Shown here one piece after another: positions 4,513 to 30,337 of a stretch of 30,589 bases of DNA (position 1 is the stretch's first letter; each line of letters starts with the position of its first letter). The notes beneath the pieces are model-generated. The model saw only the letters and a list, made by a program, of their open reading frames with translations. It searched no databases and was not told the DNA's origin. Where the stretch lies: positions 1-30,589 of IMG/VR virus record IMGVR_UViG_3300008255_000343; one strand, written 5' to 3'. The DNA is from a virus (lineage: Duplodnaviria; Caudoviricetes). The translations under genes were made by a program, and so were the position numbers.

Positions 4513-4602
4513 ACTCTCGTAGCTCAAATGGCAGAGCTTGTGATGGCTAACTCCCATCCGTAACGCCGGCGTTGGATGCAGGTTCGAGTCCTGCCGAGAG
4601 TA
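4513..4602 (+). tRNA. tRNA-like element or pseudo-tRNA with canonical acceptor, D and T arms and an abnormal anticodon/variable region
   Basis: Acceptor ACTCTCG/CGAGAGT, D arm GCTC-AAATGGCA-GAGC, T arm GCAGG-TTCGAGT-CCTGC; 40-nt centre; no encoded CCA. Confidence 0.7.
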
Positions 4603-4605
4603 TTT

Positions 4606-5175
4606 ATGTCAAGCGGAATCCATATCGGCGTTGATCCTGACACGCAATGCACGGGCATTGCGGCGGTTCAGTTCGACATGAACGGCAAGCCTCGTCTCTA
4701 CGGAGCGTGGGTGGTCAAGAGCGAGAGGGCGCTGATGGCTGGTATCTATGCTCAGGCTTGCCTCAGCGGACGTCTCGATTTGGGCGTGTACCCGGCTCAC
4801 GTAGCGATCGAGTCGCAAGACCTAGTGTACACCGCTAAGCAGCGGATCAGCCCGCAGTCCATGATCCCGTTGATTCAGGTGACGGGGGCGTACCTGAGTT
4901 CGATGATGGCGAGATGGTCTACAGCCGAGTTCAAACTGGTCAAGCCCCGTGAATGGAAGGGCCAGCAACCGAAGAAGATCAACCAGGCCCGCACGTTCAA
5001 CAAGTTGGGGATCGAGTACAAGATGATGGGCGGGAAAGACCCCTATTGCGTGCCTACTAAGTTCCCTTTGCTCGATGGTATGGAGCCGTGGATCAACGTG
5101 AAGAACGACGGCGACTGGAAACACGTAAGCGACGCGGTGGGGATCGCCCTATGGTCGCTGCTGAATCATAAGTGA
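4606..5175 (+). CDS. RuvC-like Holliday junction resolvase
   Basis: IGVDPD...TGIA, IESQ, VKPREWKG, DAVGIALW acidic RNase H-fold pattern; ATG 4606 lies just after the tRNA-like element. Confidence 0.8.
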   Translation: MSSGIHIGVDPDTQCTGIAAVQFDMNGKPRLYGAWVVKSERALMAGIYAQACLSGRLDLGVYPAHVAIESQDLVYTAKQRISPQSMIPLIQVTGAYLSSMMARWSTAEFKLVKPREWKGQQPKKINQARTFNKLGIEYKMMGGKDPYCVPTKFPLLDGMEPWINVKNDGDWKHVSDAVGIALWSLLNHK

Positions 5176-5185
5176 GGGGTCCGCG

Positions 5186-5434
5186 ATGACAACGTGGTCA
5201 GATGATCAAAAAGAACAGGTTGCGGACGCCCTTCTAGGTACGTGTATGTCGATCTCGGAGGCTTGCGAGAAGTGCGGAGTCCCCGAAATAGAGGATATGG
5301 AAGATGTCTTGCTGGATACGGGCATCGAACACTGTACAGAATGCGGTTGGTGGGACGAGTCAACGAGGTTTAACGAGTACGGCATCTGTGCAGAATGCCA
5401 GGAAGATTACGAGGGTGACGTAGATGACGATTGA
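5186..5434 (+). CDS. Small acidic Cys-rich hypothetical protein
   Basis: GAGGGG RBS; CxxC pairs (CEKC, CTEC, CAEC). Confidence 0.7.
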   Translation: MTTWSDDQKEQVADALLGTCMSISEACEKCGVPEIEDMEDVLLDTGIEHCTECGWWDESTRFNEYGICAECQEDYEGDVDDD

Positions 5435-5615
5435 GTTCTGGTGCATCTTGTTCGCGTTCTTCGTGGCATGTGCTCGTTGTGCCGTGATGACTTCGCAGAT
5501 CAACAAGCTCCGCGAAGTTGCCCATCATCTCGAGATGCACATAGCCAACCTTGAAGCGGCGGTCAAGAGGCGTAAGGTTTACCAGTCCGCGGCGAGGCGA
5601 AAGGGTAGGGGTTAA
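5424..5615 (+). CDS. Small membrane-anchored hypothetical protein
   Basis: GAGGG RBS; hydrophobic N-terminus, coiled-coil, basic tail; tightly packed with its neighbours. Confidence 0.6.
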   Translation: MTIEFWCILFAFFVACARCAVMTSQINKLREVAHHLEMHIANLEAAVKRRKVYQSAARRKGRG

Positions 5616-5617
5616 CC

Positions 5618-5806
5618 ATGACTAAGTGGAACGAAGCGTTTTGGGCTGTAGAAGTAGACGACCCTTGGGATTTTCATCCCATCCCCGCCGAGGTCGCCGC
5701 GCAACGAGTCGTGCTTCTCAAAGACCCTCGGGTAGTGTTGGTGTCAACGCCGTCCGGCCCCGACAGCCCCCTCAAAGCGATGTACGAAGCGAAGCAAGGG
5801 AAATAA
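5618..5806 (+). CDS. Hypothetical protein
   Basis: AGGGG RBS; fills the gap between adjacent genes exactly. Confidence 0.6.
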   Translation: MTKWNEAFWAVEVDDPWDFHPIPAEVAAQRVVLLKDPRVVLVSTPSGPDSPLKAMYEAKQGK

Positions 5807-5807
5807 C

Positions 5808-6998
5808 GTGTGGGTTTATATACCGGGAACATCATCTCATTCTGCTCAGGCGTCGGCGGACTCGATCTCGGAGTCCGACTGGCGAGTCCAGGGGCTCGCA
5901 CGATCTGCTACGTGGAGAGGGAAATCGCCTGCTGCGAAATCCTTGCAACGCGGATGCAGGAAGCATCCCTTGATCTCGCGCCTCTTTGGACGAATGCCCG
6001 AACCTTCGATGGCCGACCGTGGCGTGGCCTTGTGGATGGAATCATTGGCGGAATCCCTTGTCAGCCCCACTCACTCGCGGGCTCTCGCCGGGGAAGTGAC
6101 GACGAACGCGATCTATGGGATGACTTCAAGAGAGTGCTTCTTGAATGTGAGGCTACTTGGGCTCTCATCGAGAACGTCTACGGCTTTCTCGTGCCGTCCA
6201 AATCGAAAGGGCTCCCCGCCGCCATTGTACGGGTTCTTCAAGAGCTTTCCGAAATCGGGTGGGATGCGGAATGGGTTACTCTTCGAGCGTCCGATGTTGG
6301 AGCCGCTCATCAACGCCGCCGCGTGTTCGTCCTTGCACGAAAGCGGAACGTGGCCCACGTCACAGGCAACGGACGGCGAAAAGATGTCGCACCCACGCCG
6401 CGAGGGAGATCGGACGCTTTCATCAACAACAACAACATGGACAACCCCCAAGGCCATGACAGGAGGGGCGAACTCGAACAGAGCAGCCCGAAGAGCGGGC
6501 GGTCCTTGTCTTCAGGAACAGACGCAGCATTGGCAAACCCCTCGGACAGTCGCCGGGGGCTACACGAGGGATCAAGGGAACCCGGACAAGGAACGCCTCT
6601 CGCTGATCGGGCAGGCTCGGGCTTGGCCGACGCCGAACTCGCGGGATGTGAAGGGCAGCGGACCCGCCCACACGAAGGGTGGTCGCGATCTGTCGAAGGA
6701 TGCGGAGAATTGGCCGACGCCGAACTCCAACGAGGACAAGTACAGACTTCAAGGCAGCAGCCAGCAGTCCAAGGGATTGACAGCTACTGTGATCCGCCGC
6801 TCTTCGCAGCCGGCCCCGATGACCCCCGATGGTCAGAAATCCTCGAAGCCTTCCCGTCGCTTGAACCCGCTCTTTGTGGAGTGGTTGATGGGCTGGCCGG
6901 TCGGGTGGACCGAATTAGAGCCTGTGGAAATGGCGTCGTACCTCTACAAGCTGCGATCGCACTACGAATACTTGCTGCAAGGCTTGAACAAAGCCTAG
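5808..6998 (+). CDS. Overlapping-frame methyltransferase partner (beta-type polypeptide) with W-x-T-P repeats and motif IX
   Basis: 396 open codons; five W-x-T-[PS] units; RRLNPLFVEWLMGWPVGWT is motif IX-like. True start could be internal. Confidence 0.7.
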   Translation: MWVYIPGTSSHSAQASADSISESDWRVQGLARSATWRGKSPAAKSLQRGCRKHPLISRLFGRMPEPSMADRGVALWMESLAESLVSPTHSRALAGEVTTNAIYGMTSRECFLNVRLLGLSSRTSTAFSCRPNRKGSPPPLYGFFKSFPKSGGMRNGLLFERPMLEPLINAAACSSLHESGTWPTSQATDGEKMSHPRREGDRTLSSTTTTWTTPKAMTGGANSNRAARRAGGPCLQEQTQHWQTPRTVAGGYTRDQGNPDKERLSLIGQARAWPTPNSRDVKGSGPAHTKGGRDLSKDAENWPTPNSNEDKYRLQGSSQQSKGLTATVIRRSSQPAPMTPDGQKSSKPSRRLNPLFVEWLMGWPVGWTELEPVEMASYLYKLRSHYEYLLQGLNKA

Positions 6999-7027
6999 AC
7001 ACTCGCTATACTCTCCATAGAAAGTGA
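5810..7027 (+). CDS. C5-cytosine DNA methyltransferase, alpha-type polypeptide (motifs I-VIII and X)
   Basis: SFCSGVGG (I), YVERE (II), GGIPCQPHS (IV), IENV (VI), HQRRRVF (VIII), RACGNGVVP (X); no motif IX in this frame. Confidence 0.9.
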   Translation: MGLYTGNIISFCSGVGGLDLGVRLASPGARTICYVEREIACCEILATRMQEASLDLAPLWTNARTFDGRPWRGLVDGIIGGIPCQPHSLAGSRRGSDDERDLWDDFKRVLLECEATWALIENVYGFLVPSKSKGLPAAIVRVLQELSEIGWDAEWVTLRASDVGAAHQRRRVFVLARKRNVAHVTGNGRRKDVAPTPRGRSDAFINNNNMDNPQGHDRRGELEQSSPKSGRSLSSGTDAALANPSDSRRGLHEGSREPGQGTPLADRAGSGLADAELAGCEGQRTRPHEGWSRSVEGCGELADAELQRGQVQTSRQQPAVQGIDSYCDPPLFAAGPDDPRWSEILEAFPSLEPALCGVVDGLAGRVDRIRACGNGVVPLQAAIALRILAARLEQSLDTRYTLHRK

Positions 7028-7040
7028 GAATAGAACTATG
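6979..7040 (+). promoter_or_regulatory. Promoter/RBS cassette, copy 1
   Basis: TTGAAC (6984-6989), 17 nt, TATACT (7007-7012); 23-nt core identical to 8766-8788. Confidence 0.75.
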
Positions 7041-7775
7041 TCGTACCCCATTAATCTTGACGAACTGCCCGAATCTACGCTTCAACAGGAACTTGATCGC
7101 CGACATCGCTTGAGGACAAACGGCGTGTGCGACTACTGCGGGCGGGCACCCCACGAAATCCCCTGCAAGTTCCCCGACCGCCACCTTGCCACGGGCTCCC
7201 TCGGGTCACCCGAGGACGGCAAGCCCATCGAACGCCACGAGGGAACCGTATCCTTCCAAGCGAAGTGCCCGGACTGTGACGAGCAAGCCGACTTCGTACT
7301 CACCTGTACAACGCTTCTAAGGAACGAGTCCTCCGGGGCGGGGACGACTAACTTTGTCCTGCGGCACCGCGTCGTGGGCAAGTCGCACACCCTGAAATGG
7401 GAATGCCCCCACTGCGGCTCGACGGACAGGCACCGCAGGCATCCCGCCAGTACGGTGAACGATCTCATGGTGCGTGCCCACGCGAACTCCAAGGCCCACG
7501 GTTTTTGGGATGGTCCGCAGAACACTTCCGAGAAGCTGATGCTGATCGTCACCGAACTCGCCGAGGCGTGCGAATGGCTCCGCATGGATACTGGCGACGG
7601 TCCCGCCCCATCCAACCACATCCCCGAGTTCAGCGGCTTCACGGAAGAACTGGCCGACGTGGTGATCCGCGCCATGGACCTCGCGGGGAGCCGTAAGGCG
7701 GACCTCGGCGGTGCGATCCTCGCCAAGATGAAGTACAACGAGAGCCGTCCGATCAAGCACGGGAAGGGGTTTTGA
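7038..7775 (+). CDS. MazG-like nucleotide pyrophosphohydrolase with N-terminal Zn-binding modules
   Basis: C-terminal EKLMLIVTELAEACE...EELADVVIRAMDL...KMKYNESRPIKHGK; N-terminal CDYC...C...H, CPDC, CPHC. Confidence 0.8.
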   Translation: MSYPINLDELPESTLQQELDRRHRLRTNGVCDYCGRAPHEIPCKFPDRHLATGSLGSPEDGKPIERHEGTVSFQAKCPDCDEQADFVLTCTTLLRNESSGAGTTNFVLRHRVVGKSHTLKWECPHCGSTDRHRRHPASTVNDLMVRAHANSKAHGFWDGPQNTSEKLMLIVTELAEACEWLRMDTGDGPAPSNHIPEFSGFTEELADVVIRAMDLAGSRKADLGGAILAKMKYNESRPIKHGKGF

Positions 7776-8738: not shown

Positions 8739-8800
8739 AAGGCTTGACATGTCCTAGAAATCTTCCTATACTCTCCATAGAAAGTGAGGATAGGGTCATG
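8739..8800 (+). promoter_or_regulatory. Promoter/RBS cassette, copy 2
   Basis: TTGACA (8744-8749), 17 nt, TATACT (8767-8772), then GAGGA RBS and ATG 8798. Confidence 0.85.
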
Positions 8801-9007
8801 CGATACGAGATATCCGAAGATGTTAATCATGGCTGTTGTTACGCCTACTCTGTCGTGGATACTGATGATGTTCGACTCTACGACAACAAGCCGAACATGG
8901 TGTGTGAGGTGGGGACATTAGAGGAAGCGGCAATGATAGCAGACGCCTTGAATCTTTCCGACGAGATGAAAAAGCGTGAAGCTATTGCACAGAAATTAAA
9001 ACTCTAA
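8798..9007 (+). CDS. Small hypothetical protein (MRYEISEDVNHGCC...)
   Basis: Start moved to ATG 8798 because the track's TTG 8744 is the -35 box; good RBS. Confidence 0.7.
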   Translation: MRYEISEDVNHGCCYAYSVVDTDDVRLYDNKPNMVCEVGTLEEAAMIADALNLSDEMKKREAIAQKLKL

Positions 9008-9523
9008 GGTCTCTTTGACGTTCAAGTCCTTGCCCATGAACCGCACGACGTGCTCGCCAAACCGCTTGGCCGCGAGTGCCCCCGCCTTCTGAGGGTATCC
9101 GAACATACCACCCCCCGGCTCGTTGCTGAAGAACGGTTGGGGGTCTTGTTTCTTGACCTTCTGAGCGATGATGAGCAGATTCTTTTTACGGGCCTTTTTG
9201 AACTCGTCTTTGGTCAGACGCCGCGGTCGGCCCTTCGTCGGTGACTTGCCCTGGAACAGGCGGGGGTCTTTCCGGGGGTTCTTGTACCAGATCAACGGAC
9301 GTTTCTTGCCTCGTTGGTCGATCGCTCCACGTCCGTCGTGAACCAGCCTCGCCCATTCCTCATCCGTGTGCAGGCGACCGACGCCGAGCCCGAGTATCTG
9401 CCGCTTGATCGAACGCCTGAGATGGCCGAGGCGGACGGGGATGTGTGGGCGTACCGTGTCCTCGGCGAGCTTCAGCATCTCCGAGGTCAGCCGCTTCAGG
9501 AAGGCGTCGTGAGATACGGCCAT
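8996..9523 (-). CDS. HK97 gp10-like virion morphogenesis/neck protein
   Basis: Basic; IPVRLGHLRRSI, WARLVHDG and QPFF pattern; downstream of the portal. Confidence 0.55.
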   Translation of the reverse strand: MAVSHDAFLKRLTSEMLKLAEDTVRPHIPVRLGHLRRSIKRQILGLGVGRLHTDEEWARLVHDGRGAIDQRGKKRPLIWYKNPRKDPRLFQGKSPTKGRPRRLTKDEFKKARKKNLLIIAQKVKKQDPQPFFSNEPGGGMFGYPQKAGALAAKRFGEHVVRFMGKDLNVKETLEF

Positions 9524-9756
9524 CAGTCCTCAACGGGCGAGAGGTCGATGTAGAACAGGTCGCCGTACTTGAGGGCGTCGATCTTCGGGAACGCATCGGT
9601 ATTCGTGACCCACATCTGAAACGATCCCGAGGGCGTCCACCTTGACCAATCCACGTTGTCGCCGTCCTTGTCCACGCACGCCGACATGCGGACATCACGA
9701 GCTTCGCCGTCGTTCTCAACCGTCACCGAATCCACTCTGTACTTGCATCGAAACAT
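9523..9756 (-). CDS. Phage hypothetical protein (MFRCKYRV...WTPSG...YIDL)
   Basis: AAGGAGA RBS upstream of ATG 9756; TGATG coupling to the next gene. Confidence 0.75.
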   Translation of the reverse strand: MFRCKYRVDSVTVENDGEARDVRMSACVDKDGDNVDWSRWTPSGSFQMWVTNTDAFPKIDALKYGDLFYIDLSPVED

Positions 9757-9796
9757 AGGTAGTCTCCTTGTAGTGTTATGCGTTGTCACGTTACAA

Positions 9797-11179
9797 TCAG
9801 TCCTTGAGCCCCTCGCTCACGTCACGGCCCTGAGCCTGAGCCTGAGTCACGGGCGTCCGCATCCCACCTACCGTGGTCATCATGTCCAGGTTCATCTCTT
9901 CGAGGATGGTCCGCTGCTTGAAGTTCTTCTGAGTCAGCCCGAGCCCGCCGTTGATCGTCGGGTTACCGAGCGTCGCGCCGAGGGTCTGCTGGAACGTCCG
10001 CTGTGCCGGGCCGACCTTGAGCAACTGGAACGCCATCAGAGCGTTCGGCAGTTCGTTTGTGGCGCCGAGCTTGCCGGGAATCTGAATACCCGCGAGAAGC
10101 GGCGGTACACCGTGGGCTGTGACGACGGACAGAGCCAGCCCGTCGAGTTCCTTGCTTTGTTCCTCGGTCTTGGAATCCATCGCCAGCTTCTCAAGCTGCA
10201 CGGTGATGTTCTCGTTACCGAGGTTCAGGGCGAGGGACTTGTGGGAGTTGCCGAGGCCGATGTTGGCTTTCATCGCGTTCTCGACCTTCTCCCAATCCTC
10301 TTTCGTGAGCTTCTGGCCCGTGATGAACAGCATGAACTCCGGCACGCCTCGGTTCAGGAAGAAGTCGTAGCGGTGCTGTCGGAAGCACGCCACCAGTTCG
10401 ATCGCGACCACGGCGGCGGTCCACTCGGGATACCCATACCACCGCGACAGCGACGACGACTGGCGAATCTGGATCGCCTCGCTCACGTCGTCGGCGTTGA
10501 CGGTCGTGAAACCGTGCCCGCCCGCCTTCCACCGTTCTATGAACCCTTCCTTGTCGCCGAACACAGCGAAGGCCCGCTCGCCGCCGTCATCGTCCGAGCC
10601 TCGGACGACGTAGTGGCGGTTGTAGGACTTGTCTTCGATATAGACGTGGGTGTTCGCGGCGGGCAGGTGGTGGATGCCCGTGATCTGCTCACCGTCCCCC
10701 CGACGCACCGCCTCGATGTACCCCTCCCCAACTTGGAAGTAATCTTCTCCCACGTCGTTCATCACGTCCTGTGCCGTGATGCTGGTGAGTGGGTTAAGAA
10801 CCTTGTCTACCTTGCTCTCTTGTTCTTCGACCTTTTCGGTTCCATCGGGGTTCTTAGTTGTCTTGCGGCTGTCCGCCCATCCCAACCCCACCGTGCAGGC
10901 GGTCTTGGCCTTGATGCACGCCGCGTGGTGCTCGTTGATCGTCTGGAAAGACGTGACGGTCTGCCGGTCGAACGGGTGCGGAACCTCGCCGATGTACACG
11001 CCCTGACTGCTGGCTTTGACCGACGGTTTCGCGACACGATCCGCGGCCTTCATGATCGTCACGAGGGACTCATTAACCATCAACCCATCCCCGTACAAAG
11101 GCCTGGAAAGTCGATGGATTTCGAGCACTCGATCCACTTGCTCCACGACGGATTTAGGCGGCGATATAAGTTCTGGCAT
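9797..11179 (-). CDS. Portal protein, PBSX/P2-like family
   Basis: HAACIKAK, GEGYIEAVR, WYGYPEW, FFLNRGVPEFML, AHGVPPLLAGI; GAGGG RBS before ATG 11179. Confidence 0.9.
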   Translation of the reverse strand: MPELISPPKSVVEQVDRVLEIHRLSRPLYGDGLMVNESLVTIMKAADRVAKPSVKASSQGVYIGEVPHPFDRQTVTSFQTINEHHAACIKAKTACTVGLGWADSRKTTKNPDGTEKVEEQESKVDKVLNPLTSITAQDVMNDVGEDYFQVGEGYIEAVRRGDGEQITGIHHLPAANTHVYIEDKSYNRHYVVRGSDDDGGERAFAVFGDKEGFIERWKAGGHGFTTVNADDVSEAIQIRQSSSLSRWYGYPEWTAAVVAIELVACFRQHRYDFFLNRGVPEFMLFITGQKLTKEDWEKVENAMKANIGLGNSHKSLALNLGNENITVQLEKLAMDSKTEEQSKELDGLALSVVTAHGVPPLLAGIQIPGKLGATNELPNALMAFQLLKVGPAQRTFQQTLGATLGNPTINGGLGLTQKNFKQRTILEEMNLDMMTTVGGMRTPVTQAQAQGRDVSEGLKD

Positions 11180-11220
11180 GTCAATCCCTCGTGATAGATT
11201 TAGCATGTTCTGTTTTATGC

Positions 11221-11249
11221 TTGCGTTCGGTATATGGGCAGTATATAGT
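11221..11249 (+). promoter_or_regulatory. Candidate promoter for the head-tail operon in the divergent intergenic region
   Basis: TTGCGT, 17 nt, TATAGT in the AT-rich 11180-11291 gap. Confidence 0.55.
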
Positions 11250-11291
11250 GCTGACGGTGTAAAGGGAATACCGATCTGCCAAGGATGGTCC

Positions 11292-12422
11292 ATGCGGCGA
11301 AGAATCAAACAGGCGAAGATCAAGTTCATCTCGCTCGTCCCTCGCGGGGCGAACCAGATTCCCGTGATCTTCAAGTCCGATGATTCCTTCGATCTCCAAA
11401 TGCTCACTAAGGCCCCCTTGTCCTTCGCGGAACGCGGCGAACTTCTCGCCGTGGTCTACGCCCCCGAGATTCGCGACAGCCAGGGCGACATCGCCGACGC
11501 GAGCGTGATCCGCGACATGATGCACGATTTCGCCAAGAGCGGCGAGGGCATCGACATCACCCATGACGGCAAGGCGGTCGCCAAGGCCGAAGCCTTCGTT
11601 GCAGAGTCGTTTGAAATCCAGAAGGGCGACGAACGGTTCGCCGACATGAAGGATTACAACGGCAAGCCCATCGACGTGACGGGCGGCTGGGGCGTGGTGA
11701 TCAAGATCACAAAAGAAGAACTCAAAGACAAGTACCGCAAGGGCGAATGGAACGGCGTGTCGATGAGCGGAACGGCGGTTGTGGAAGCCGAGAAATCCGA
11801 CCTCGATCCTGCCGGTTTCATCAAAGCCCTCGCGGACCATCTCAAGCAAACCACCGACTCAGGAGACCTGAAGATGACGAACGAAGAACTCAAGAAAATG
11901 CTCGAAGAGAACAACAAGACCCTGCTCTCCGAGATGGACAAGAAGATCGAGACCGTGACCGGCAAGGGTGCCGATCCCGCCCCGAAGCCCGCCGACAAGG
12001 GTGGCGACGCGACGGACGACAAGGCCCCCGTGTTCAAGGGCGAGCCCACCGTCGAGAACCTCCGCAAGCACCGCCTCGCGGTCCGTCGCTTCAACGTCCT
12101 GAAGGACATCGACTGGTCGAACGACGAGTCCGTTCTGAAGGCCGAAACCGATCTCGCCGAGATCGAGAAGGAACTGAAGGGCAAGCCCGCCGACGCCTCC
12201 GAGATCGAGAAGGCCGCTGGTATCGAGTCCGGTGACTCCGATGAGGTCAAGGCCCTGAAGATCGAAAAGGCCCGCGTCGAAGCCAAGCTCGCCTCGACGC
12301 TCAAGAAGTCCAACCAGCCCGGCAACGAAGGCAACAACCACCTCGGCGATGGCGACGAGGACGGCTCGTTCGACATCGGCAAGAAGATGGGCACGTTCAT
12401 CAACAAGAGCCGGGGCTACTAA
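11292..12422 (+). CDS. XkdF-like prohead serine protease with C-terminal scaffold region
   Basis: ISLVPRGAN, VVYAPEIRDSQGD, IDITHD, VAESF, GEWNGVSMSG; charged helical C-terminus; AAGGA RBS before ATG 11292. Confidence 0.85.
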   Translation: MRRRIKQAKIKFISLVPRGANQIPVIFKSDDSFDLQMLTKAPLSFAERGELLAVVYAPEIRDSQGDIADASVIRDMMHDFAKSGEGIDITHDGKAVAKAEAFVAESFEIQKGDERFADMKDYNGKPIDVTGGWGVVIKITKEELKDKYRKGEWNGVSMSGTAVVEAEKSDLDPAGFIKALADHLKQTTDSGDLKMTNEELKKMLEENNKTLLSEMDKKIETVTGKGADPAPKPADKGGDATDDKAPVFKGEPTVENLRKHRLAVRRFNVLKDIDWSNDESVLKAETDLAEIEKELKGKPADASEIEKAAGIESGDSDEVKALKIEKARVEAKLASTLKKSNQPGNEGNNHLGDGDEDGSFDIGKKMGTFINKSRGY

Positions 12423-28686: not shown

Positions 28687-28895
28687 GATACCTTTTCGTG
28701 AGCCCGGATCATCCTGCGTGCAAGGGCGGCTGCCCCTCGCCCCCTCTTGGGGTTAATCGCCACGATCGCCACCTGAGTCGTTACCACCGTGCCGCAACCC
28801 GACGCTAAACACTCGCGACGTTGAGCCATGCCCCCCGGCGTTTTGTACGTGTGGGTGACGGCCAGCGTGCCTCTGTCGCAGATGGGGCAGTTCAT
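28635..28895 (-). CDS. Zn-ribbon protein, Ogr/Delta- or NrdR-N-terminal-like; possible late regulator
   Basis: MNCPIC...QRRECLASGC; ATGA overlap with the terminase stop. Confidence 0.65.
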   Translation of the reverse strand: MNCPICDRGTLAVTHTYKTPGGMAQRRECLASGCGTVVTTQVAIVAINPKRGRGAAALARRMIRAHEKVSQSPESSASTTSGSEAI

Positions 28896-30337
28896 CGTCG
28901 TCCTATCGTTCCCTTGTAGGCGGATGATCCTACTCGCTTGCCGGACCTGCGGGTTCCTGAGACCCATCCATCGGCCTCGACCTCATCATAGAATGTCATC
29001 ACAGCCATGTCAGCCCTATCGGGCGATCCCCCGTTGCGCTTCTTATAGTCATCTTTCTTCTCGACCACTATCTTGCCTTTTCTATTGACAAAATACTGGC
29101 GAGTTGTTAGCTGCTGGATCATCAACGGGTCTTTGGGCAGGTAGCACTTGCCCTTCTTGCACAGCGACGCGAGGTTGAACCACGCCTCGGTGATCCGGTT
29201 CTCATACTGGTTGTTGATCGAGTGATTCAGGGAGTGGAACTCCATGACGTTCTTCTGAGCCTCATAGAACAACGCCATCGCACCGCCGCCAATACCGTCT
29301 GCGTCCGGAACGTACCAGGTGTCCTCGTCCTTCCAGAAGGCGTCGTGCTGCATCCTGAACGCCTCGTCAACGACGTTCATGGGCTCAACGTGGTGGAATA
29401 CCCTCGTCGACACCAGAGCGTTCCCGTGCCGGCGACCAATGACCGATTCGTCGTCGCCGAAGCGGGCGATGTCGAGGCCGATCTGTCGCGCCAGTTTGCC
29501 ATTCGGCCGCCTGATCTGAGACGCCCAAAGCATCTGGCCTTTGTCCAAGCACTTCTCCAAGTCCTCGATCGAGATGATGCAGTTCGGATCGGCGATCGGG
29601 AACTCGCCGAGCACGCGGACGCGGTACACGTCGGAATCCCTGCCGAACTCTTCTTCGAGGTCTTTGTTGCGTTTAGGATCGAACCATTCCGATGCGGGGG
29701 TCTCTTCGGCGTTCCAGTGAAGGCACGTCCACTTCGCCCGGTCCCGAGTGAAACAGTCGAAGAACGCACAGTCGCGTGTGTTGGGGTTCCCGATTTGAAG
29801 GAACATGGCGTTGGGGTTGGTTAAAGTGCCTTTGTACTGTTCTATGATCTCTCTCTTCACGCCCGAGGCTTCTTCACAGATAATATCCATGTCCTTGCGG
29901 TGCTGGCCCTGAGCGGATTCCGTTCTCGTGGACGTGACGAGCAACGCACCCCAATCACGGGGCTTCTGTCCGCACACACCGATCTGCGTGTTTGTGACCT
30001 TGAACAGCTTTTGAACCATCGGATGTGCGTCTCGAAGGACAAGCGAGACCTCCCCGAGCCACACGTCTTTACACTGCTTCATCGTAGGGGCTGTCACAAC
30101 GAGCTTCGACCACGGCTTGCGGATCAAACGGAACAGGCCCACCACCGCCGAGGTTCGAGACTTCCCCGGCCCCTGCCCCGATCGACAGGCTATCTTGCTG
30201 TCACCCCGTTGGACGGCATCAAGTAGCTGCCTCTGCTGCCACGTAGGATGGAAATTAACAGCAGCACAGAACTTGTAGATGTCTTGACTGATGGCTCTGT
30301 AGACTTGCTCGAATTGTCGAGCCATTAGACTCATCAA
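28892..30337 (-). CDS. terL: Terminase large subunit
   Basis: PTWQQ, Walker A SGQGPGKS, Walker B IICEEASG, GNP, nuclease GLDIARFGDD, DADGIG, SPDRAD. Confidence 0.95.
   Translation of the reverse strand: MMSLMARQFEQVYRAISQDIYKFCAAVNFHPTWQQRQLLDAVQRGDSKIACRSGQGPGKSRTSAVVGLFRLIRKPWSKLVVTAPTMKQCKDVWLGEVSLVLRDAHPMVQKLFKVTNTQIGVCGQKPRDWGALLVTSTRTESAQGQHRKDMDIICEEASGVKREIIEQYKGTLTNPNAMFLQIGNPNTRDCAFFDCFTRDRAKWTCLHWNAEETPASEWFDPKRNKDLEEEFGRDSDVYRVRVLGEFPIADPNCIISIEDLEKCLDKGQMLWASQIRRPNGKLARQIGLDIARFGDDESVIGRRHGNALVSTRVFHHVEPMNVVDEAFRMQHDAFWKDEDTWYVPDADGIGGGAMALFYEAQKNVMEFHSLNHSINNQYENRITEAWFNLASLCKKGKCYLPKDPLMIQQLTTRQYFVNRKGKIVVEKKDDYKKRNGGSPDRADMAVMTFYDEVEADGWVSGTRRSGKRVGSSAYKGTIGRR

Follow-up and report, generated by a model that had tools for sequence, protein, structure and literature searches.

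M.EcoHK31I, which recognizes YGGCCR, is a heterodimeric C5 DNA methyltransferase in which both chains are required, according to the accessible parts of the published accounts (PMC2836561, PMC3404938). Its β chain initiates independently and the split genes complement each other; activity was lost when the β start and two internal Met codons were removed, and β chains that begin at internal Met codons or carry N-terminal deletions were still active (accessible part of PMC2836561). M.AquI (CYCGRG) is a C5 methyltransferase in which two polypeptides complete one enzyme, as far as the available text describes it (PMC3404938). The locus presented here resembles M.EcoHK31I, within what those excerpts contain, in that the α chain carries motifs I–VIII together with X, and a β chain read in another frame of the same DNA carries motif IX. 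In M.EcoHK31I, as so described, β is smaller and lies wholly inside α, whereas here it has 396 residues and starts 2 nt before α; M.EcoHK31I's target-recognition domain is assigned to α (accessible parts of PMC2836561 and PMC3404938), whereas the variable region here is on β; and β here has an extra N-terminal domain, the comparison being with the published description. The split in M.AquI, on the same partial account, falls between motifs I–VIII and IX–X; here motif X returns to α, which sets the locus apart from the M.AquI type. A split like that of M.AquI, with partly overlapping frames, was seen in four relatives (L251–L253 and L255: the mycobacteriophages Darrell and Ryadel and the Streptomyces phages Vash and phiBT1).

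The multispecific methyltransferases of Bacillus phages are single chains. M.SPR, M.phi3T and M.H2I are C5 enzymes of this kind, with tandem variable-region units and proven multiple targets, in the available part of PMC8936443. The present locus is like them, as described there, in being an apparently orphan phage C5 enzyme with tandem exchangeable units, a likeness of layout, and unlike them in that its units of ~30 aa lie in a second frame. We propose, with a probability of roughly 0.8, that two independently initiated chains form one enzyme, an extended variant of M.EcoHK31I.

The window, meaning the whole stretch of DNA that was analysed (30,589 nt), is a 30.6-kb tailed-phage contig with family A DNA polymerase, portal, major head, tail, tape-measure and terminase genes. 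The locus is situated in the replication module, 3' of the polymerase and a few small genes and 5' of a pyrophosphatase-like gene. No restriction endonuclease was named among the flanking ORFs scanned, several of which have no family, and the locus therefore looks like an orphan phage methyltransferase. Both the portal gene (9000–11407), which faces the opposite way from the head and tail genes, and the terminase-like gene (28892–30337) are encoded on the minus strand. The ORF at 4576–5175 has no library match; its N-terminus looks RuvC-like when judged by eye, and in one relative (L005) a RuvC gene also lies 5' of the methyltransferase. A 28-nt direct repeat, whose copies at 7006–7033 and 8766–8793 are 96% identical, contains TATACT; its first copy overlaps the last α codons, and a promoter-like match is found at 6984–7012.

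The two ORFs lie on the plus strand, β at 5808–6998 (GTG start, 396 aa) and α at 5810–7027 (GTG start, 405 aa). Both frames are open together over 5810–6998, or 1,189 nt, β being +1 relative to α. The earlier note had described two frames open for ~1.19 kb, with GTG codons at 5808 and 5810 behind one AAGGGA; these coordinates are confirmed, as are all of its motif positions in both frames. The double start GTGTG occupies 5808–5812, and the SD-like AAGGGA (5796–5801) ends 6 nt before the β GTG and 8 nt before the α GTG, in a start region with weak structure (z +1.37). In its own frame, each GTG is the earliest ATG, GTG or TTG to follow the preceding stop. The α frame opens only at 5807, and GTG 5810 is the sole ATG, GTG or TTG before motif I, because the stop of the upstream gene closes the frame three bases earlier. 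This upstream gene, an ORF of 62 aa (5618–5806, plus strand), has its stop 1 nt before the β GTG and 3 nt before the α GTG, and translational coupling is possible. Both frames are likely to be translated from the adjacent GTGs. No RNA data set was listed as containing the stretch, a result that has no bearing on its expression. We lean slightly towards a mechanism in which ribosomes at the single SD, or re-initiating from the upstream stop, would choose either GTG; it is plausible that one ribosome-binding site would then set the α:β stoichiometry.

Such an overlap is seldom obtained by chance. Of 5000 recodings of α with the codon usage of the phage, one kept the +1 frame open, the mean being 7.8 stops; when the β variable region was recoded, the α frame stayed open in 6 of 5000; and the longest open +1 stretch in eight other genes of the window was 40–143 codons. 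An assembly artefact, in which two compensating indel errors have broken a single-chain gene, has a negligible probability, and no point was found in its favour. Contigs over 5400–7400 show no indels, and overlapping pieces from run X1 (possibly the source sample) cover this region without gaps; a contig of another study is identical to the window over 5768–6036; and the conserved layout of the relatives described below refutes such an error.

The α chain (5810–7027) has an M.HaeIII-like model and was expected from the earlier note to carry motifs I–VIII and X. PF00145 matches residues 7–181 at 97.9 bits against a cut-off of 22, and motifs I, IV (Pro-Cys), VI (ENV), VIII (RxR) and X are intact: motif I (FCSGVGG) is at 5840–5860, the PC motif at 6050–6073, ENV from 6170, RRRVF at 6314–6328 and motif X (GNGVVP) at 6905–6943. 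Judged by these motifs, α has the SAM-binding element and the catalytic Pro-Cys as well as ENV, RxR and motif X. The chain scores 73.3 bits over residues 8–191 with the NCBIfam model dcm (TIGR00675), below the whole-protein cut-off of 100.65, as expected because it is without the variable region and motif IX. The top Foldseek match of the α model is 1dct (M.HaeIII; E 2.1e-14, rmsd 2.6 over 177 columns), and M.HhaI was also matched. The model is confident over the catalytic domain and motif X, and not over most of residues 183–329. This segment (6356–6796) is an unconserved linker which, being kept open, allows motif X to stay on α.

The β chain (5808–6998) is less easily named. The two chains fall in two 'DNA methyltransferase' families, α in PHROG 363 and β in PHROG 1008 (E 1.4e-23); in the Pfam search of each frame α matched PF00145, and β on its own belongs to no Pfam or NCBIfam family, with two stray weak matches among 84 aligned members. 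By sequence, its sole match in the PDB is to 26 residues of the MS2 coat protein, which was judged to be chance. Foldseek with β matched two unnamed viral entries and nothing in the PDB at E≤0.001; in the ESM Atlas residues 1–180 matched unnamed viral clusters, and residues 180–396 unnamed or 'methyltransferase' clusters. Modelled alone, β is poor (pLDDT 61.6, pTM 0.31). Among 8000 candidates scored, 259 are β homologues.

Residues 1–89 of β (5808–6074) form an N-terminal domain that begins MWxxxP, has helices with W and L, lies over α motifs I–IV and is predicted to clamp onto α. With a cut-off of E≤1e-10 a profile of these residues matches 3,660 clusters (50% identity), and with 1e-3 it matches 5,072; 137 of the 142 newly listed top matches start with M(x)W, and of those with at least 250 aa, 109 of 128 have the IX segment at their end, although these are gene calls and not proof of translation. 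On this profile, the first 89 residues of β define an unnamed family of ~3,660 clusters. Further on, a GxMRNG-like hairpin (6246–6293) lies over α motif VII and is predicted to pair with α 152–157; it is found in relatives with a short β too. The segment LNPxFVEWLMGWP (6855–6911) is conserved among homologues and predicted to pack on motif X. We take it to be motif IX by position; no library names it. The label was given mainly because in four relatives (L002, L008, L242, L244) the segment directly precedes motif X in the α frame; the frame switch in relatives and the predicted packing also underlie it. The earlier assignment of the variable region (from 6351) and motif IX to frame 5808 thus stands for both elements and was incomplete in that it omitted the conserved N-terminal domain.

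The conservation of the layout was analysed in loci fetched with an alignment of α homologues, in order to avoid selecting for an open β frame. The best 80 each of 583, 539 and 547 confirmed stretches, from viral, genome and metagenome collections respectively, were joined by ten previously fetched loci and by the window itself; a contig identical to the window was left out. Of the 250 loci examined, 220 have motifs I–VIII intact and fall into 81 clusters at 70% identity, the window included; three of the 81 were picked from a β search. The other 30 were dropped (29 failed the motif filter and one was cut at its 5' end), which may make the count of broken copies too low. Over motifs I–VIII the +1 frame has no stop in 73 of 81 clusters, where GC3-weighted recoding predicts 0.3 and permutation of codons within the gene 11.8; the +2 frame is stop-free in none of the 81. 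Correction of three mis-placed motif-I anchors raises the count to 76 of 81, and all 71 clusters fetched by the α profile alone have the +1 frame open; what remains as true exceptions are five more distant loci in which the second frame is short. In a reciprocal fetch that used a β homologue, both frames are open from motif I to motif X in 68 of 80 loci. Homologues thus keep frame 5808 free of stops. The earlier note had taken the arrangement for an extreme version; it is instead common, and belongs to a widespread family. The median length of β is 362 aa in 45 complete clusters.

The start of β is also conserved. In 72 of the 76 open clusters a start codon is followed one or two codons later by Trp, then by L/I, mostly Y/H, mostly V/I, and P (62/72), while the overlapping α residues vary. 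A start codon followed by TGG necessarily contains a GTG two bases on, so that the double start is built into this signature. Among 51 start pentamers 30 are ATGTG, 17 GTGTG and four TTGTG; in 18 of the 51 that GTG is the only nearby start of α, and in 35 an exact SD match of at least 4 nt is present, mostly 5–9 nt upstream. The shared initiation region is real in sequence. In 23 of 72 clusters there is an additional α-frame start codon 4 nt before that of β, and a single shared pentamer is therefore not universal. The GTGTG start of the earlier note is accordingly best regarded as one form of a start-codon-plus-Trp signature.

A quick tree separates the long-β loci (77) from the short-β loci (10) by one branch with an SH-aLRT of 91; as the tree is unrooted and the short-β set was picked by hand, it gives no direction of change. 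The frame assignment of the modules, IX and X varies among several groups of relatives (L001, L020, L167; L002, L242, L244; L008; L251–L255): the variants seen have X on β, or IX and X on α with the modules on β, or are nearly single-chain with a short second frame. In Streptococcus phage P0093 (L254:1049-1468) a nested +1 gene is annotated within what looks like a conventional single-chain methyltransferase, and similar sequence lies under dcm genes in 96 plasmid records. A plasmid route to an EcoHK31I-like locus was also tried, and led to other families instead.

Inserts were seen in some homologues of both chains. Two α homologues (P0383, P0384) have an intein just before the catalytic Cys, and two β homologues (P0270, P0297) have an insert of ~300 aa at the matching place, which ends in the apparent +1 frame of the α intein junction; these proteins suggest that the β frame stays open through an intein, and a search for DNA of the β homologues with the long insert found none. 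In two other β homologues (P0259, P0339) there is a LAGLIDADG-like insert in the β frame (Pfam E 0.005–0.008, below cut-off), and in P0247 and P0377 the N-terminal domain occurs twice with an insert between.

Selection in both frames can be read from the bases that one frame leaves free. At five columns, four-fold wobble bases of α are fixed to 0.79–0.92, against a null of 0.38 and a simulated maximum of 0.51–0.55; averaged over all 49 columns, fixation is 0.53 against the same null. The five columns yield L59, P66, A69, W76 and R161 of β, of which L59, W76 and R161 fall in the predicted interface described below, and stop avoidance fails to explain all of the bases. A frame-switch table was compiled from 63 pairs of related loci, drawn from 170 loci. 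Differences at α codon positions 1, 2 and 3 are 0.09, 0.06 and 0.26 over motifs IV–VIII, 0.27, 0.11 and 0.12 from VIII to IX, and 0.10, 0.04 and 0.24 over motif X. The most variable position is the third of α over I–VIII and X, and the first of α, which is the wobble position of β, between VIII and IX, so that the variable region belongs to β. Within the repeats the alignment is unreliable and counts of indel lengths are uninformative. These substitutions indicate that selection leaves the α frame for the β frame beyond motif VIII and returns to α at motif X; the earlier note had reported colinear motifs that switch frame out and back. Over motifs I–IV amino-acid change is 0.23 per codon in β versus 0.12 in α, about twofold, so that constraint on the N-terminal half of β is real but weaker. 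As far as comparison of sequences goes, the overlap is real and conserved, and each of its frames is under selection.

These data bear on whether β is made at full length. If the working β were a short chain made from an internal start, such as the ATG at 6120, one of the internal ATGs in β, the open 5' half would be a by-product or have only a regulatory role; three short-β relatives (L006, L007, L009) have +1 stops in I–IV, and β of M.EcoHK31I tolerates internal starts (accessible part of PMC2836561). We consider this unlikely. The 45 codons that follow the PC motif lack an ATG in 41 of the 76 open clusters, and no internal ATG position is conserved, the best being found in 13 of 76. The start-plus-Trp signature and the wobble fixation lie upstream of 6120; the N-terminal profile recovers its 3,660 clusters, and nearly all of the newly listed top matches have M(x)W starts; and residues 1–6 of β, against α 58–60, are among the most confident predicted contacts.

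The colinear motifs would also be expected from one polypeptide made by double recoding, with a +1 shift after motif VIII and a −1 shift after motif IX, as would the constant IX-to-X spacing of 65 nt in 30 of the 45 complete clusters. Double recoding leaves unexplained the open and selected β frame upstream of the first shift, the open α linker (6/5000 by chance) and the conserved β start. The earlier note had seen no clear slippery site, and in agreement no −1 slippery heptamer was found in a frame or place able to join the motifs. In the precedent of M.EcoHK31I, β initiates independently, according to the accessible part of PMC2836561. Double recoding is thus very improbable, and two separately initiated chains remain the preferred reading.

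The two chains were also modelled as a complex. Co-folding of α, SAM and β gave a score of 0.88, above all three controls (best 0.25). The mark is one that 116 of 157 solved complexes attain, along with 2 of 215 mismatched pairs, a calibration that is only roughly valid with our own alignments and the ligand. The runs share at least 54% of contacts, with a partner pLDDT of at least 52. The predicted interface includes β residues 1–6, 30–41, 52–62, 73–81, 143–164 and 349–393, and β is predicted to wrap α at three places, with its N-terminal domain, its hairpin, and motif IX together with the last helix. The helices at 30–81 have no solved counterpart. It is possible that the pass is partly due to the likeness of the IX–X region to solved single-chain enzymes; this likeness does not obviously explain the contacts of β 1–6 or the helices at 30–81. 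Only one of the modules (residues 299–332) makes confident contacts in the complex.

It could be argued that both chains are made and that the long β serves mainly in regulation or as a structural element elsewhere, for example by targeting or repressing α or through binding to some other protein of the phage: no homologue of the N-terminal domain has a solved structure, and most modules have no confident contact with α. This is improbable, as packing of the IX segment on motif X is predicted, and α, in which neither a conserved variable region nor motif IX is present, must obtain both from a partner. The two-chain, full-overlap reading of the earlier note is supported by the open frame in homologues, the indel-free contigs and the predicted pair compared with its controls.

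The variable region of β contains five tandem WxT[P/S] modules (6351–6818) of ~30 aa each, which start at 6351, 6438, 6531, 6624 and 6711 and are putative target-recognition cassettes. Modules 2, 3 and 5 recur at different positions in distant homologues with 71–79% identity, the four-residue head excluded; the best matches of modules 1 and 4 are 54–58%. The background identity of modules has a median of 0.17–0.23, and the homologues that host them are mostly ~27–43% identical overall. Of 201 proteins, 199 contain between one and nine units each. In this they resemble target-recognition cassettes that have been shuffled. That they do recognize targets, and that the enzyme may methylate several sequences, we hold at a little under even odds. 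A minority variant in run X1 differs at seven bases within 6609–6670, with both frames open, and alters residues just after the fourth WPTP head, in the fourth module. Palindromic hexamers are avoided in the window (166 seen versus 456 expected; 28 of 64 absent), as is GCGC (41 versus 171), which points to restriction pressure on the phage; palindrome counts in the window indicate no target site.

Public annotation captures the arrangement in part. In each of five full-overlap records inspected only one frame is annotated, namely α in phi1026b, Yong-M2-251 and ABMM1, and β in Alfacinha3 and a Sphingomonas replicon; a recoded clone of the annotated protein would therefore likely be an inactive half-enzyme. 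RefSeq annotates the nested second frame of Streptococcus phage P0093, and partial and nested overlaps are thus already present in public annotation. No description of the full-length form was found in the literature searched, in which subscription papers are little covered, so that this is weak evidence; the accessible parts of PMC10885494, PMC6070908, PMC13732428, PMC5009743 and PMC12707154 contain nothing on it.

The two chains are predicted to form one heterodimeric C5 DNA methyltransferase, which would methylate the DNA of the phage itself and so likely protect it from host restriction. Long same-strand overlaps that encode two subunits of one enzyme are rare, and here the overlap extends over nearly the whole gene; the family of the second chain numbers thousands of clusters and has no Pfam model. 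Tentatively, and with somewhat less confidence than for the cassettes themselves, a large phage clade may encode a multispecific methyltransferase as two fully overprinted chains from a five-base double start, with a new N-terminal clamp domain, gained by the second chain and laid over the catalytic motifs that are most conserved in the enzyme, and with swappable 30-residue DNA-recognition cassettes. The locus offers a natural test of how ribosomes choose between starts 2 nt apart, of how overprinting on conserved codons can give rise to a domain, and of whether methylation specificity can be reprogrammed through 30-residue modules.
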